From NCBI RefSeq assembly GCF_030384885.1, contig NZ_CP128613.1: a stretch of 64,000 nt of DNA; one strand, 5' to 3'. Made by a program: the position numbers. Source of the stretch: Escherichia coli (lineage in GTDB: Bacteria; Pseudomonadota; Gammaproteobacteria; Enterobacterales; Enterobacteriaceae). Of this stretch, positions 12,001 through 18,000 are shown piece after piece. Every line of letters begins with the position of its first letter. Positions within the stretch are counted from its first letter, which is position 1.

Positions 12001-15000
12001 AAAGTCGAGCACGCCGATGAGTACGATTTGTGGGGTAGCCGGGTTTAATTAATTCAGGCAGGGCAACATCATTTGCCCTGCCTGCTAATAATGATTACTG
12101 CCAGCTAATCTGCGCCCTGCCGTTTTTCTTACTCTTATACAGTCGCTCATCCGCCAGCATTTTCAAACGTTCAACGGTGGTACATTCATTTGAATGCGCT
12201 ACGCCGATACTGGTGCTCAAGTTAATACTCCCCACCTGGAAATGGACGATTTCTTTTAGAATCGATAGCAACTCCTCCAGCGTTCCGCCAGTATAAATCA
12301 CCGCAAATTCGTCACCGCCGAAGCGGTAGACTTTACCTTTATCTACCGGGATTTGTGATTTAAGGATTTTCACCACTTTCATCAACACTTCATCGCCCAG
12401 TAAATGACCGAAGGTGTCGTTAATGTTTTTGAATTTATCGACATCAAAAAGACACAGATAGCCCCCTTTTTCCGGCAGGGCTTTTAAATCTTCATCAAAG
12501 GATTTTCTGCCCATTGCTTTGGTCAGGTCGTCCAGAAACGCCGAGTTATACATACTGTAGAGTTTTTTGACATCGGCAGCCGAGAAGAAAAGCCCACCGT
12601 CCAGGACGCGTTCAAAATGGTTATTAATAATGGCTTCTTTCTCCACAATGCCACGATTAATCACTCTGCGCACCAGATAAAGGCAGCTAGCACCCGATAT
12701 CACTGCCACCAATGCAGCAAAGAAAATAATCAACATACATACCTGAAAATAAACGTCTTTTTTATACGAAAATACGTACAATCCGGTCGGCAAATAGGCG
12801 AAGTGCTCCATTGCTTCCGAAACGGTGAAGATGGCGTTTTTAGCATTATATTCATCACCGGTCACCGGTTTACCGTTCTTAAACAGAGAGAACATCAGGT
12901 TCTCGCTATCCATCGCCAGCGATTTTGACAGTAAAGAAAAACGCTCCAGACCAAGCAAAAATATCAGACTGCGATTGTGAGTTACCGGATAGAGGTAATA
13001 GACGAAGGTTTTACCGTCAAAAGAGATAAACCCTGTATTTTTGACATGTCGATACTTAACAACCTGCATAATATCTGCACAATAATTTTTCTCGAACTCC
13101 TTTACCTGAATACATTCGTCACTGGAAATCAGATAAGGACCGACATCGTACAAATAAGAGGGTGAAACCGAGTCGGCGTAAGCTGTGCGCAAGCCAACCA
13201 ACAGCTGTTCCTCCGTGGGATTTAGCGTGTTGATGAGATCAATTGCCACGCTACGCCGATATTCAGCAATATTTGCCACCGCAAAAGCAGTATCAATAAC
13301 GGACTGTTTCAGGCCATACACCCGTTCCTTTACCATTTGAGTGTAGATCCCGCAGGCAACTGCTGAAATCATGATAAAAATCAGCAGACTGACTGTAAGT
13401 ACGAACTTATTGATTCTGGACATACGTAAACTACTCTTTTACTAATTTTCCACTTTTATCCCAGGCGGAGAACGGCATGGGTTTCTGGTACAGATACCCC
13501 TGAGCCTGAACACATCCTAATTTGATTAATTCGCGCGCAACGTCTTCGCTCTCTACGCCTTCCGCAATCACCGGGATCCGGTTATAGCGTGCCAGATCGA
13601 AAATAATGCGCACAATTTTCCCCGCAGTACCGAAAATATCGCCGGTAAATTGCGAGTCCACTTTTATACTGTCTGGATTAATTTCATAAAAACGTTTCAG
13701 GTTTGACAAACCGGTGCCAAAGTCATCAATCGATATCCGTACCCCTTGTTTACGCAGTTGTTCAATATTGAGATAAAAATGTTCATTAATTCGCTCGATC
13801 ACAGTTTCAGTGATCTCAACACAGAGGCTGTTCGCCTTCAGGCCATTTTCTTTCATGATGGTGGTAAAACGCTCATGAAAGTGTGGTTCGTTTAACTGCC
13901 AGGGCGAAACATTAATATGCAGTAAGAAACCGTCCTTCAGCGACGCACGCTGACTAAAATGTCTGAATTCACCCATCGCGGTTTTAATAATTTGATAACC
14001 CAGCTCATTGATAAACCCGATATCTTCAGCAATGGTAATGAACTTCAGCGGTGAAATGATCCCCCGCTCCGCAGACACCCAACGGCACAACGCCTCCGCG
14101 CCCAGAATGGCGCGGGTGTTAATATCAACAATCGGTTGATAGACCAGGAATAGTTCGCCAATTTCCATGGCATGGCGAATATTACGCGCAATCCAGATAT
14201 TCTCTTCTATTTCGTTGAGTTTCGCGTCATCACAGAAAATAAACTCTGAGAACATATGGTCACGGATACTGGAAATCGCCAGTTTCAGTTTTTCTGCGTA
14301 ACTCCAGGCGTTTTCTCCCTTCAACGGTTCACAAATGGCAGACTTATGGATGCGCAGATTGCGGTAGCCAAAGCTGCTGTCAAAATCGTTTATCATCGCT
14401 ATTTTACGGGTAAATGTCTGTACATTTTCCCGGCACAGAAGTAAATAGAGATCGGCATTGAATGTCACGATATCGCAGCATTGCGCATATTTCTCGGCAA
14501 TTCGCTGACACAATTTCCTGACGATTTTATTGCGTTCATCAACACCAAACACCGCTTCCACGGCTTCCAGACCACACAGTTTGATGATCCCCACAGCCAG
14601 ATACTGATTATTGTTTGACTCAATAATCGCCATATTTTTAATAAAACCGCTTTCCTGATCGTAAGAGATCAGTGAGAGCAATTTATTTGACCGTTCAATT
14701 TCGGCATCTTTCATTTCCGCGATCGAATTTTTGATGCTGATAATCTCTTTCGCATCGCCTTCGCGAATTTTCAGAGCCTCGATTTGATCCGTTGAGTCGG
14801 GCAAAAATGCCAGCGTATTAACCAGCTCGGTCATTTCAGAAAATTGCCGACGGAACACACGAGTGGTCATTAAATAAACCACCAGCAATACGATAATAAT
14901 GAAAGCAAACGGCAGATAAAAAAGTTTATCTGATGCGTTCAATAAATTACCGCCAGGATAATAAAAATAGATTTCGAATAATGCGTTGTTTGGCACCGCT

Positions 15001-18000
15001 GATGTTTTTTCGATATATTCAGTATCGACAGAATCAATAATATTATAATTGCCTTCGCTATTATAAATAATCAGTTTTTCACGAGCGAGTTGATTCTTGG
15101 CAATGATCTCATGGCCTTGTTTCAAAAATAGAACTTCATCATTAGCGCTGATTTGATCAAGATACTCGTTCAGATATCGCCAGTTTAAATCGACATGAAT
15201 TTTATCCACCACTAACAAATCGTGATCTTTGCCGTTGATGCGTAGCGTAAAAGAGATACATTTTTTACCCGGACGATCAAAGCAATTGTATGCCGGATTC
15301 CAGCTGTTGTTAGAGTCATCTGAAGCCACAGACCACGGTCGTTTCGATGGGTTAAAATCGGCAAAAATAACCCGCCCTGACTCGTCGACAAGCGGTCCAT
15401 TTACTTGTTCCTGATGATAAACAGCGATTTTATCATTTGCCCTCCGCGAAAAGAGATAATATTTATTATCATCAAGTACCAGTCCCACCGAGTCTAAAAA
15501 TGGCATCATTTCCATTTTAAGGATCACAGCGCGTTGAATCTCCTCTGTATTTTTTAATAAATACAGTGAGTCCTTTAATGTCAGGGCCGAACGTTCAATA
15601 TCTTTAAAGAAATAGCCAACGTTTTTCTGAATAAGTTCAAAGCGGCTATCGGCACGTTTTACCGCGCGTTCCGATACCAGTTGATAGTTAATGATGAAAA
15701 AAAGACCAATAAATGACAGCGCTGCCAATAAAAATAAAATTATCAACCTTATTTTTATCTTTTCGTATAAACTCAGCATGTTAATACATTTAACAAAATA
15801 ACTATCTGAACGCCGTGCCGCTGCAAAAACAGTCCCTTGCTGCGGCTTTTTAACCAAATTACCCGATTCTACAAAATCAGCAGAAAGTTACAACACTTGC
15901 TTAGGGCAATAATTTCCTGTGAGGTGATTACCCTTTCAAGCAATATTCAAACGTAACTATCCTTTAATTTTCGGATCCAGCGCATCGCGTAAACCATCAC
16001 CCAACAAATTGAACGCCAGTACGGTCAGAAAAATAGCCAGGGCCGGAAAAACAGCGACATGCGGCGCGATAACCATATCCGCTCGTGCCTCATTGAGCAT
16101 TGCTCCCCACTCTGGTGTCGGCGGCTGCGCACCGAGGCCGAGAAATGACAGGCTGGCGGCAGAGATAATCGAGGTGCCGATGCGCATGGTGAAAAACACC
16201 ACGATAGAAGAGACGGTCCCAGGCAGAATATGACGCAATAAAATGGTCATATCGCTGGCACCAATACTGCGTGCTGACTCAATAAAGGTTTGCTGTTTCA
16301 ACACCAGCGTATTGCCGCGCACCAGTCGGGCAAACGCGGGGATGGAAAAAATGGCAACGGCGATAATCACGTTAGCGATGCCGCTTCCCAACACCGCAAC
16401 AACAGCGATGGCCAGCAAAATACCCGGGAAGGCAAACAGCACATCGCAAATGCGCATGATCAGCCGATCCCACCAGCCTTCATAATATCCCGCCAGCAAG
16501 CCCAGCAACGTCCCGATCGCCGCACCGATAAACACGGCAAACACGCCCGCCGCCAGCGAGATTTGCGCACCAACCAGGACACGGCTGAAAATGTCGCGTC
16601 CCAGTGAATCGACGCCAAACCAGTGCTGCAAAGAAGGTCCGTTATTCAGATTGTCATAATCGAAAAAATTTTCGGCGTCATAGGGGGCGATCCAGCGTGC
16701 AAAAATGGCCACCACAATCAATAAAATGACGAATAATGCGGCGGCCATCGCCATATGCTGATGGCGAAATCGTCGCCAGAATTCATGCCACGGTGTGCGT
16801 ACCTGGTCAGGTTTAACCAATGGCATGGCGTTTAACACCGCCTGACGTCGCCAGTTAAATATTCGCATCCTTACTTGTACCTGATAGCCGGGTTAATGGC
16901 GGCATAAAGCACATCCACCACTAAGTTGATAAGAATAAATTCCAGCGAGAAAAGCAGAATTTCCGCCTGAATCACCGGGTAATCGCGCATTTCTACGGAG
17001 TCGACGAGTAAGCGTCCAAGTCCGGGCCAGTTGAAGACTTTCTCCACCACAATGGAACCACCGAGTAAAAAGCCAAACTGTAAGCCCATCATGGTCACTA
17101 CCGGGATCATCGCATTGCGTAACCCGTGTTTGAGGATGACCCAGGTTTCGCTCACCCCTTTCGCCCTCGCGGTACGCATATAATCTTCGCTTAAAACGTC
17201 GACAAACGATGCGCGGGTAAAGCGCGCCATCACGGCTGCCACTGCCGCGCCGAGCGTCAGGGAGGGTAAAATGTAGTGCTGCCAACTGTCTGCACCTACG
17301 GTGGGTAACCAGCCAAGTTCAACTGAGAAAACCTGAATCAACAGTATTCCTAACGCAAATGCCGGGAATGAAATCCCTGATACCGCGATAGTCATACTTA
17401 ATCGATCCGGCCAACGGTTACGCCAGACAGCGGCGATAATACCAGCCCCCATGCCGAACAGCACCGCCCAGGTCATACTGGTAATAGTCAACCATAGAGT
17501 AGGCATGAAGCGGCTGGCAATCTCATTGGCAACGGGACGACGCGACACCATCGACAGGCCAAAATCGCCCTGTACGGCATTGGTGATATAGTGCCAGAAC
17601 TGGTGATACAGTGGCTGATCCAACCCCAGTTGCTGACGCACCAGTTCTATAACCTGCGCATCAGCTTCGGGTCCGGCAATCAATCGCGCTGGATCGCCGG
17701 GGAGCATATGAACAAACAAAAATACCAGCACCGAGACGATAAACAGCGTCGGAATCAACCCCAGTAAGCGTTTGATAACGTAATTAAGCATTCCACTCCC
17801 TGCGTTGCTTATTGCAAATCCGCGTCTTCAAAGCTGAAACCGGTGTCTGGCATGATCCAAAAACCGGTCAGGTTTTTACTGTGTGCCGACACCAGTTTTT
17901 CTACCACCAGCGGGATCCACGGCGACTCTTGCCAGATGATATCCTGCACCGCCTTATATAAACGGGTCTTTTCTGCCGGATCATTAGTTTTCAGTGCCTG

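Follow-up and report, generated by a model that had tools for sequence, protein, structure and literature searches.

The pdeI-dgcI gene pair of Escherichia coli: a probable old and ameliorated import between gsiD and rimO

The stretch of DNA analysed here (the window, 64,000 nucleotides of the E. coli contig NZ_CP128613.1) carries pdeI-dgcI, a two-gene c-di-GMP signalling unit located between gsiD and rimO with both genes on the minus strand. Both genes are already known, and the AT-rich stretch that they form is real but ordinary. The best explanation as a whole, to which we give a probability of about 0.78, is that the pair was imported in the Escherichia stem, has since been ameliorated and acts as an antagonistic c-di-GMP pair. 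Such a pair would have been inserted between the convergent gsiD and rimO genes in the stem lineage of the genus, and the source was most likely a mobile gene pool as AT-rich as the present plasmid copies (about 33-35% GC). Vertical inheritance with purifying selection would have followed. The synonymous sites, free to evolve, would have drifted almost fully to the composition of the host, and a protein sequence in which Ile, Asn, Lys, Phe and Tyr are frequent would hold the GC content about 10 points below that of the neighbours. An older horizontal acquisition had been proposed in the initial annotation of this DNA, and it is supported by empty junctions in relatives, by dS values like those of the flanks and by AT-rich mobile paralogues (fourfold-site GC 0.28-0.37).

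The two genes and their proteins

The dgcI gene (yliF, 442 aa) lies at 12095..13423 and pdeI (yliE, 782 aa) at 13431..15779, both on the minus strand. This identity and the interval 12095-15779 had been assigned before, and both are correct by ORFs, Pfam domains and the annotation of NZ_CP027579.1, a 100% identical record that names the genes dgcI and pdeI. The pair was also said to be present in K-12, which agrees with published work (PMC5635695, PMC11651652); K-12 PdeI (YliE, b0833) and DgcI (YliF, b0834) are the same genes at the same gsiD|rimO site with the same domain content. The proteins encoded here share about 98-99% identity with the commonest E. coli forms, and at the DNA level the allele is 2.5-3.7% diverged from most E. 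coli genomes. The flanking genes are equally diverged (dS 0.08-0.35), thus the divergence is not specific to pdeI-dgcI. A spacer of 7 nt (13424..13430, minus strand) separates the pdeI stop from the dgcI start, and the spacing is between -11 and +9 nt in all six family contexts examined, which suggests that the two genes are co-transcribed.

PdeI is a membrane sensor with three recognizable parts. A periplasmic CHASE9 sensor (Pfam PF17153) spans residues 35-150 (15330..15677, minus strand) and was matched at 1.2e-62 with 209.7 bits against a cut-off of 27. The middle of the protein, residues 312-530 (14190..14846, minus strand), consists of a helical linker and a GGDEF fold that is degenerate; this fold was missing from the initial annotation, and PdeI is not a plain EAL gene. 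The domain has no Pfam match even at E <= 10 and no sequence match in the PDB, and an hhalign comparison with the GGDEF domain of DgcI gave a probability of 0.2%. The assignment comes from an AlphaFold2 model (mean pLDDT 75.5), for which nearly all of the 50 Foldseek matches listed from the PDB are GGDEF domains with a probability of 1.00. The GG[D/E]EF active-site motif was sought in this domain and is absent, the sequence NADLY standing at its position (14445-14459, minus strand). It is proposed that the domain is catalytically dead, and PdeI as a canonical, active cyclase with the claimed 'divergent GGDEF' was rejected as it has neither a GG[D/E]EF motif nor a PF00990 sequence match. Gly412 (14535-14549, minus strand), also in this domain, is invariant in six family members.

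The third part of PdeI is an EAL domain (Pfam PF00563, residues 532-767, 13479..14186, minus strand) matched at 2.5e-69 with 233.7 bits against a cut-off of 31.3, with PDB matches to EAL domains down to 1.3e-43. All of the catalytic and metal-binding residues are present: EALxR, N, ExxE, DDFGTG, K, EGVE and QGY. The minus-strand positions of four of these motifs are 14082-14096 (EALCR), 13806-13817 (EITE), 13710-13727 (DDFGTG) and 13551-13562 (EGVE). The EAL motifs are invariant across six family members, and the same motifs have been given for YliE of strain CFT073 (PMC3484386). The EAL domain is thus intact as judged by its residues, and PdeI is predicted to be a c-di-GMP phosphodiesterase. 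Its function is contested in the literature. Overexpression of PdeI blocks phage N4, like that of other phosphodiesterases (PMC7553319), whereas in another study overexpression raised c-di-GMP 11-fold and the G412S substitution abolished the rise (PMC11651652).

DgcI is a membrane sensor diguanylate cyclase. Its periplasmic GAPES2 sensor (Pfam PF17156, residues 26-229, 12737..13348, minus strand) was matched at 4.6e-141 with 467.9 bits against a cut-off of 27, and its catalytic GGDEF domain (Pfam PF00990, residues 295-437, 12113..12541, minus strand) at 2.9e-25 with 89.3 bits against a cut-off of 23.8. The GGDEF motif (12305-12319, minus strand) is part of an unbroken RFGGDEF at residues 367-373, so that the cyclase domain appears intact and DgcI is a predicted diguanylate cyclase. 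The RxxD inhibitory site, which is common but not obligatory, is absent five residues upstream of the motif; the I-site of YliF has been given as 'GE' (PMC3484386). In Shigella flexneri, DgcI gave more c-di-GMP by LC-MS/MS than any other diguanylate cyclase tested, and a GG to AA mutant lost this effect (PMC11327459). In K-12, DgcI was undetectable under standard conditions (PMC5635695). Within E. coli dN/dS is 0.06-0.08 for pdeI and 0.02-0.03 for dgcI, values of 0.02-0.08 that indicate that the pair is kept under purifying selection.

Base composition of the pair

Together with the initial annotation three checks had been proposed: windowed GC, the codon adaptation index and the phylogenetic distribution. 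The GC content of the pdeI-dgcI region is 42.2% (pdeI 41.5%, dgcI 43.6%), as compared with a mean of 52.3% and a standard deviation of 3.0 points for the 49 other genes of the window, which corresponds to z = -3.6 for pdeI and -2.9 for dgcI. Against 906 background windows of the same size, a set that leaves out the pdeI-dgcI region and the 54.4-58.5 kb island, the deviation of the pair is significant (z = -4.5); the background minimum is 46.6% and none of the windows is as low. No other part of the window has so high a dinucleotide signature distance (delta* 0.063), which lies above that of each of the 91 background windows, and the boundaries of the low-GC block are the boundaries of the gene pair. 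The claim that the pair is markedly AT-rich relative to its neighbours is borne out by these values. The accompanying wording of stretches under 30% GC holds for small patches and is overstated beyond them, as the share of windows below this value is 8% at 30 nt, 4% at 50 nt and 0.4% at 100 nt, and no 200-nt window in the pair is that low (minimum 30.5%). The AT-richest parts (32-33% GC) are found at about 15600-15800, the 5' end of pdeI, and at 14900-15200. The gene identity and the compositional anomaly of the earlier observation therefore stand, and its quantitative phrasing needs to be corrected.

The anomaly is not found in codon usage. GC at fourfold-degenerate sites is 0.59-0.60 in the pair and 0.649 ± 0.075 in the other genes, and the codon adaptation index (Sharp-Li weights) is 0.28-0.30 and lies within the range of the other genes (0.345 ± 0.098), so that this second check revealed no deviation. 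The GC deficit is concentrated at the first two codon positions. Phe, Tyr, Met, Ile, Asn and Lys (FYMINK) make up 33-35% of PdeI and DgcI, against a fraction of 0.238 ± 0.041 in the other genes. Since the fourfold sites no longer differ from those of the neighbours, the residual AT-richness is carried mainly by amino-acid composition and synonymous sites contribute little. Composition alone may also fit a native pair that merely encodes FYMINK-rich membrane proteins.

The gsiD-rimO junction and mobile relatives

In a GsiD-anchored scan with one genome per species, which covered the best 80 of at least 590 loci and some of the Escherichia species, 62 Enterobacterales species had both gsiD and rimO in reach. 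Among these best 80 loci, gsiD and rimO are 37-130 bp apart in 35 of the 62 species, including Salmonella, Citrobacter, Klebsiella and Enterobacter, and less than 900 bp apart in 49. Within the same set the pair is absent from the junction in 60 species, and E. albertii is the only one with both pdeI and dgcI there. A tblastn search of the 37-130 bp junctions of the 35 species, again from the best 80 of at least 590 loci, found no remnant of either gene. In the 61st species, Escherichia sp. MOD1-EC7003, 56 bp from the 3' end of dgcI are left at the junction, which shows that the pair was secondarily lost in this organism. Separate look-ups of E. fergusonii and E. marmotae gave the order gsiD-pdeI-dgcI-rimO, and 5425 of 5426 complete E. 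coli genomes match the region. As for the third check, the pair at gsiD|rimO is confined to Escherichia among the genomes examined, and the junction is empty in most relatives. For dgcI the dS between E. coli and E. albertii is 0.70, equal to that of the flanking genes (0.63-0.84), which argues for vertical inheritance at least since the split of these two species.

The pair has its own upstream region, the 177-nt gsiD-pdeI intergenic region (15780..15956, minus strand), to which nothing corresponds at the empty junctions in other genera. An earlier study (PMC11651652) employed a 250-bp fragment with the native promoter of the pair. A candidate sigma-70-like promoter, TTGTAA-16 nt-TAGAAT, lies at 15866..15893 on the minus strand. 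The number of matches in the consensus scan that gave this candidate is at chance level; by eye, E. albertii and E. fergusonii share its -10 element TAGAAT and TTGT from its -35 element, although their intergenic regions have otherwise diverged. Between the convergent stops of rimO and dgcI there is a perfect 12-bp GC-rich hairpin (12055..12084), whose RNA fold has an energy of -23.7 kcal/mol (z = -5.7 against shuffles). It is a putative terminator whose stem is followed by a U-run on neither strand. One hairpin of this kind is present at the empty junctions in other genera. Apart from hairpins the junctions hold none of the elements looked for at the borders of the pair, namely flanking direct or inverted repeats, a tRNA, an integrase or IS remnants, and there is no Rfam match. 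For H-NS silencing of pdeI-dgcI there are at most indirect hints, namely the AT-rich 5' region and the failure to detect DgcI in K-12 (PMC5635695), and no statement on it was found in the literature.

Relatives of the pair are found on mobile elements. About 100 plasmid records, nearly all from Escherichia, have a DgcI-like gene (40% identity), and about 57 have a full-length PdeI-like gene (38% identity); where both are listed they are adjacent, with the same order and orientation. Other Escherichia assemblies have a chromosomal cluster of pdeI-like, dgcI-like, bcsA(PilZ), bcsB and bcsC genes, and a Salmonella plasmid carries the pair alone. YliE/YliF homologues adjoining plasmid bcs clusters have been described by the Roemling group (bioRxiv 10.1101/2025.05.09.653004), and these bcsA2-4-linked homologues share gene order, orientation, tight spacing, domains and catalytic motifs with the chromosomal pair. 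They differ in being linked to bcsA(PilZ)-bcsB-bcsC or to plasmid backbones, whereas the chromosomal pair has no adjoining cellulose genes and is largely ameliorated. The mobile copies are 34-42% identical to the chromosomal pair with a GC content of 33-35%, and all family members have a FYMINK fraction of 0.33-0.385. Fourfold-site GC is 0.28-0.37 in the mobile copies and, for the chromosomal pair, 0.50-0.51 in E. fergusonii, 0.51-0.60 in E. albertii and 0.59-0.60 in E. coli, with the flanks at 0.54-0.67. The family tree is star-like, with identities of 29-43% between clades and 70-94% within Escherichia; the radiation of the family thus predates the chromosomal clade. No donor was found outside Escherichia or Salmonella. 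An exhaustive profile search with the GAPES2 sensor region found only 41 relatives among 1.84 billion representative proteins, most of them unnamed fragments, and those with an organism name are all from Escherichia or Salmonella; the search of this set gave no relative of this sensor domain beyond Escherichia- or Salmonella-type records.

Origin and proposed function

The succession from mobile copies (0.28-0.37) to chromosomal copies (0.59-0.60) and flanks (0.67) is the pattern expected of an old import that has been ameliorated. It is on the grounds of composition that we take the plasmid pool, and not the chromosome, as the probable source of the transfer. The model of Lawrence and Ochman describes classical ameliorated horizontally acquired genes. 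The pair resembles such genes in its restricted distribution, the empty site in sister genera and a composition between those of an AT-rich source and the host, but differs in that its borders are without mobility genes, tRNA or repeats. As for the features of a genomic islet, the pair has a deviating composition, a patchy distribution with an empty site and relatives on mobile elements, and it is without mobility hallmarks at its borders. With fourfold sites almost fully ameliorated, standard codon-based detectors would probably miss it.

It is improbable that the pair is native, that is, already present in an early enterobacterial ancestor and repeatedly lost, with a low GC content that reflects the make-up of sensor proteins together with weak selection and poor expression. 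The fourfold-site GC and codon adaptation index inside the range of the neighbours, a deficit that sits in the first two codon positions and in the FYMINK content, the lack of flanking mobility signatures and the very low expression of DgcI in K-12 (PMC5635695) are all in keeping with such a history. It would, however, need many independent clean losses, since the junction is 37-130 bp and remnant-free by tblastn in 35 species of many genera (best 80 of at least 590 loci), and the GAPES2 region has no homologue beyond Escherichia- or Salmonella-type records. The FYMINK-rich paralogues also have very AT-rich synonymous sites, therefore the low GC of the family is not only a protein-level effect.

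Equally, there is little to recommend the chromosome as the source, from which plasmid and bcs-linked copies were exported and turned AT-rich on plasmids; this is very unlikely. Plasmids are generally more AT-rich than their hosts, all members of the family come from Escherichia or from Salmonella plasmids, and a star-like tree with 34-43% identity between clades could be read in this way. The clades, however, are as far from each other as from the chromosomal copy (29-43%), far deeper than the divergence within Escherichia. The intermediate chromosomal composition, graded from E. fergusonii through E. albertii to E. coli, fits drift towards the host, and export leaves the empty junction in sister genera unexplained. 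That the anomaly is insignificant and lies inside the ordinary spread of E. coli gene GC can hardly be true: '<30% GC' does fail at any scale of 200 nt or more, and mntS (41.1%) and a few more genes of the window are low too, but the GC z-scores (none of 906 windows as low), the delta* above all 91 windows and the coincidence of block and gene-pair edges reject it.

Under the favoured reading of an ameliorated import, pdeI and dgcI would be co-transcribed from their own upstream region. PdeI would be an inner-membrane sensor in which periplasmic CHASE9, a helical linker and a dead GGDEF-fold regulatory domain precede the intact EAL domain, and DgcI an inner-membrane sensor with periplasmic GAPES2 and an intact cyclase domain. 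The two may act against each other, one making and one breaking down c-di-GMP, and together set its level according to cues from the periplasm. Their target is probably local; for the paralogous copies it would be the adjacent PilZ-containing cellulose synthase. The DosC-DosP (DgcO-PdeO) operon of E. coli is similar in that a cyclase and a phosphodiesterase are co-encoded and the phosphodiesterase combines a sensor, a degenerate GGDEF and an EAL domain, and the fold search with the middle domain of PdeI matched DosP structures, among others. However, DosC and DosP are cytoplasmic haem sensors, whereas PdeI and DgcI sit in the membrane with their CHASE9 and GAPES2 domains in the periplasm, and the gene order is reversed.

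A wider reading, which is tentative and rather doubtful, is that pdeI-dgcI is a domesticated member of a mobile c-di-GMP cassette with at least six clades of 29-43% identity, found only in the AT-rich mobilome of Escherichia and Salmonella. Its original job would have been that of a dedicated local switch for an accessory PilZ cellulose synthase, and the dead GGDEF fold with the invariant Gly412 would couple PdeI to DgcI. If true, such coupling through the dead GGDEF fold would reconcile the reports of PdeI lowering and of PdeI raising c-di-GMP.

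Layout and composition of the pdeI–dgcI pair

Both the genes discussed here and a large part of their mobile family have been described before. Two adjacent minus-strand genes make up the pair, and the Pfam assignments bear out the initial annotation of a GGDEF cyclase gene next to an EAL phosphodiesterase gene. dgcI (yliF; 12095-13423, -) encodes a 442-residue protein with GAPES2 (4.6e-141) and GGDEF (2.9e-25) domains, and pdeI (yliE; 13431-15779, -) encodes a 782-residue protein with CHASE9 (1.2e-62) and EAL (2.5e-69) domains. The two genes are 7 nt apart. On the pdeI side the pair is flanked by gsiD (15957-16868, -), with an upstream intergenic region of 177 nt, and on the dgcI side by the convergent rimO (10723-12048, +), with a 46-nt spacer that contains a perfect 12-bp hairpin (12055-12084; -23.7 kcal/mol, z = -5.7). 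The window is E. coli chromosome, and its interval 10500-17000 is 100% identical to strain 2013C-4282 (NZ_CP027579.1). Because the window and that record are not identical throughout, gene coordinates taken from the record drift by 1-2 nt past ~31.6 kb and were re-anchored by ORF.

At 15866-15893 lies a candidate sigma-70-like promoter, TTGTAA-16 nt-TAGAAT, with conservation in E. albertii and E. fergusonii; match counts in the promoter and terminator scan were at chance level. A gSELEX RpoN site between yliE and yliF has been reported (PMC8743547). Two sigma-54 consensus matches lie on the minus strand in the region of the pair, at 13704-13719 and at 15822-15837. The second, AGGGAC-N5-TTGCA, has its GG and GC positions intact and precedes the pdeI start codon by 43 nt. 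Across the window this consensus is matched about as often as chance predicts (45 versus 44 expected), and neither match counts as evidence for the gSELEX site. Nothing usable on binding of H-NS at yliE/yliF came out of a literature search.

The pair has a GC content of 42.2% (pdeI 41.5%, dgcI 43.6%), compared with a mean of 52.3% (sd 3.0 points) for the 49 other annotated genes in the window, against which pdeI has a z of -3.6 and dgcI of -2.9. None of 906 windows of the same size, drawn from outside the region of the pair and an island at 54.4-58.5 kb, is equally low (z = -4.5). The Karlin dinucleotide distance of the pair, 0.063, exceeds that of every one of 91 background windows, and the edges of the low-GC block coincide with the borders of the gene pair. 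Taken together, these measures establish that the anomaly is real. It was confirmed in kind but had been overstated in degree, as the stretches of less than 30% GC that had been described are local patches only: 4% of windows fall this low at a size of 50 nt, 0.4% at 100 nt and none at 200 nt.

Most of the present AT-richness sits in the amino-acid sequence, as can be seen from codon-position GC, fourfold-site GC (GC at fourfold-degenerate sites), residue composition and codon usage. GC1 is 0.485 in dgcI and 0.487 in pdeI versus 0.592 in the other genes of the window, GC2 is 0.318 and 0.309 versus 0.407, and GC3 is 0.503 and 0.450 versus 0.571. Fourfold-site GC is not deviant, at 0.60 in dgcI (z = -0.65) and 0.59 in pdeI (z = -0.8) versus 0.649 ± 0.075. 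The fraction of FYMINK residues (Phe, Tyr, Met, Ile, Asn, Lys) is 0.334 in dgcI and 0.351 in pdeI versus 0.238 ± 0.041, and the GARP fraction is 0.183 and 0.192 versus 0.273. The codon adaptation index, which had been proposed as a check, is unremarkable, at 0.28-0.30 for the pair versus 0.345 ± 0.098 for the others, values that rest on Sharp-Li weights and are indicative only.

A far stronger compositional anomaly, of 30-35% GC, lies between dinG and rhlE at 54466-58452. It comprises a gene annotated as a type III effector (54466-56478, -; 34.6% GC) and a hypothetical gene (56767-58452, +; 30.4% GC). Its fourfold-site GC of 0.33-0.38 is 3.6-4.2 sd under that of other genes and its dinucleotide signature distance is 0.10; this island looks like a recent acquisition.

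The gsiD–rimO junction and inheritance of the pair

GsiD was used as the query against the genome collection so that every locus displays the junction downstream of gsiD, and the proteins of the window were compared by tblastn with the best 80 of at least 590 loci. Both gsiD and rimO are in reach in 62 species among these best 80 loci, and they are always convergent. The stop-to-stop gap is less than 900 bp in 49 of the 62 and less than 130 bp in 35, including many Citrobacter, Enterobacter, Klebsiella, Kosakonia, Lelliottia and Buttiauxella; in Salmonella enterica subsp. diarizonae it is 43 bp. E. albertii alone of the 62 has pdeI (88% protein identity) and dgcI (94%) at this place. By exact-protein look-up, E. 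fergusonii (PdeI 70%, DgcI 79%) and E. marmotae share the order gsiD-pdeI-dgcI-rimO. Among the species covered by the scan and the look-ups, the pair is at this junction only in Escherichia. In Escherichia sp. MOD1-EC7003 the pair is missing but 56 bp of the dgcI 3' end remain, which marks this case as a secondary loss. Among complete E. coli genomes the pair is matched in 5425 of 5426, with coverage of 80% or more in 5380.

In about 45 complete E. coli genomes coverage of the pair is below 80%, and a single genome keeps just 4%. The annotation of BL21 gives pdeI (L089, 11383-13731) as a pseudogene containing an internal stop, and in strain E8 (hit H93) an IS1 element interrupts the gene. The assembly of the E. 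albertii type strain has a seemingly frameshifted pdeI, with the break near codons 27-29 (L005, 9132-9218 versus 9209-11476). The gene may be a pseudogene in that strain, or the assembly may be in error; an intact 782-residue PdeI (P0234) is present in other E. albertii records.

Inserts of 2.2-7.8 kb occupy the junction in 13 species. That of E. albertii is the pair, and the other 12 (L013, L016, L017, L018, L033, L034, L040, L041, L050, L053, L076 and L078) carry unrelated cargo, so the junction is a recurrent insertion hotspot. The cargo in other genera includes a chemoreceptor with a DUF4385 protein; HEAT-repeat proteins; GH31, MFS transporter and LacI-type regulator genes; GH38, PTS and PRD-regulator genes; a sigma-54 activator with PTS and SIS-domain genes; a zeta toxin; a GNAT acetyltransferase with an RHS fragment; and a 2-hydroxyacid dehydrogenase. 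The GC content of these inserts is below that of their flanks. Traces of insertion in the form of border repeats, tRNA genes or IS elements are absent at the junctions of the pair, and no Rfam family was matched.

A 237-residue HEAT-repeat gene lies between dgcI and rimO in E. albertii (L005, 12802-13515, -), and HEAT-repeat-like sequence, assigned by eye, lies beside the dgcI remnant in MOD1-EC7003 (L015, ~11020-11440). Neither is present in E. coli or E. fergusonii. The rimO-bssR junction is variable too, with inserts of ~3-4 kb in several Citrobacter (L006, L007, L009, L012) and LacY, LacI and GH42 genes in E. marmotae (L095).

Between this strain and E. albertii, dS is 0.70 for dgcI and 0.63-0.84 for the flanking genes. 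Against BL21 and UPEC 536 the pair has a dS of 0.07-0.20, within the 0.01-0.35 of the flanks, and a dN/dS of 0.02-0.08. From these values it follows that the pair has been co-inherited with its neighbours since at least the time when E. coli and E. albertii separated, and that purifying selection acts on it. Comparisons with E. fergusonii gave saturated NG86 estimates, and the estimates for gsiB in E. fergusonii and for pdeI in the E. albertii type strain were discarded as coordinate or frameshift artefacts. Recent allelic import could account for the elevated divergence of the pair in this strain from that of other E. coli, but the flanks are equally or more diverged and this explanation was rejected. 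Compared with BL21 and UPEC 536, the whole neighbourhood (6800-23700) is unusually and unevenly diverged from common E. coli, with a dS of 0.01 for bssR, ~0.1 for most genes, 0.29 for moeA and 0.35 for gsiC, which suggests a recombination mosaic or a divergent lineage.

Mobile relatives, domains and function

Adjacent paralogues with the order and orientation of the pair were found on plasmids by tblastn (PdeI-like 38% and DgcI-like 40% identity). The DgcI-like gene is present in ~100 plasmid records of roughly 80-210 kb, all but one from Escherichia, and a full-length PdeI-like gene in ~57. On pMTY9754_p0111 the paralogous pair lies beside IS elements and bcsA-bcsB-bcsC. In other Escherichia assemblies, chromosomal pdeI-like, dgcI-like, bcsA (with a PilZ domain), bcsB and bcsC genes lie on one strand throughout, and E. 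ruysiae is among the records in the protein cluster of these bcs-linked paralogues. On a Salmonella plasmid the paralogous pair is alone, near ccdAB and raffinose genes. Across four unrelated contexts, of which two adjoin cellulose synthase genes, the pair has been conserved as a unit, and pdeI-like and dgcI-like genes are spaced by -11 to +9 nt in 6 of 6 contexts. A 2025 preprint from the Roemling laboratory (10.1101/2025.05.09.653004) also places YliE/YliF homologues next to bcsA2-4 clusters and finds them apparently restricted to Escherichia. In one accessory cluster (L087, 11426-19126; pdeI-like, dgcI-like, bcsABC), GC is 38% in bcsA, 43% in bcsB and 58% in bcsC, whose fourfold-site GC is 0.75; the cluster is a compositional mosaic, and given this unevenness its parts seem to differ in history.

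The clades of the family are mutually 29-43% identical and give a star-like picture. Neither a word-indexed DgcI search nor an exhaustive search of 1.84 billion representatives with a profile of the GAPES2 sensor region (41 matches, mostly fragments) found a member outside the Escherichia and Salmonella groups, and all family records with an organism name are from Escherichia or Salmonella.

DgcI has an intact RFGGDEF motif and lacks an RxxD I-site. PdeI has all the EAL catalytic motifs (EALCR, EITE, DDFGTG, EGVE and QGY), which are invariant in 6 of 6 family members. Residues ~312-530 of PdeI gave no match in Pfam (at E <= 10), a PDB sequence search or hhalign, and this middle domain was revealed solely by structure prediction and fold search. 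The AlphaFold2 model (mean pLDDT 75.5, core 80-90) has a long helix followed by an alpha/beta domain, and nearly all of the 50 PDB matches listed by Foldseek are GGDEF domains, including those of DosP and LapD (probability 1.00). The position of the GGDEF motif reads NADLY, so the modelled domain is a degenerate GGDEF fold with a presumably regulatory role. G412 is invariant across the family members compared, and its mutation altered the behaviour of PdeI in two published studies.

Published studies of the two proteins conflict over whether PdeI lowers or raises c-di-GMP. Its overexpression confers resistance to phage N4, like that of other phosphodiesterases (PMC7553319), and in an eLife study it increased c-di-GMP 11-fold by HPLC-MS/MS, an effect abolished by G412S (PMC11651652). 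The PdeI sequence lends no support to a canonical cyclase activity; it shows an intact EAL domain and a GGDEF fold from which the GGDEF motif is missing. One way to reconcile the reports is that PdeI may act via the co-encoded DgcI. The orthologue of DgcI in Shigella has strong cyclase activity (PMC11327459), and in K-12 DgcI is undetectable and is toxic on overexpression (PMC5635695). The conserved pairing, and in two contexts the location of the genes immediately before a PilZ cellulose synthase, suggest with some literature support an antagonistic sensor pair that would serve a local target. The chromosomal pair has no cellulose synthase neighbour.

Amelioration and origin of the pair

The FYMINK fraction is 0.33-0.385 in the proteins of every family member, and the synonymous composition of the copies is sharply different. 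Fourfold-site GC is 0.28-0.37 in the plasmid and bcs-linked copies (total GC 33-35%). In the chromosomal pairs it rises to 0.50-0.51 in E. fergusonii (total 39-40%; flanks 0.54-0.60 at fourfold sites), 0.51-0.60 in E. albertii (total 40-42%; flanks 0.60) and 0.59-0.60 in E. coli (total 41.5-43.6%; flanks 0.67). This gradation, together with the empty junctions in relatives, supports and refines the older horizontal acquisition that had been suggested from AT content. An AT-rich pair would have entered the stem lineage of Escherichia, its free sites would then have relaxed toward the host equilibrium, and its protein sequence would have retained the AT-rich coding.

The explicit tests applied here identify a "core" E. 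coli signalling pair as an old import, which adds little and leaves the standing view of pdeI and dgcI unchanged. The varied cargo of the junction, the conservation of the pair as a unit and the dead GGDEF fold of PdeI may be of use in work on c-di-GMP specificity. The foreign origin of the pair is now visible mainly in amino-acid composition and not in codon usage, and nearly complete amelioration of this kind can conceal old acquisitions from codon-based detectors.
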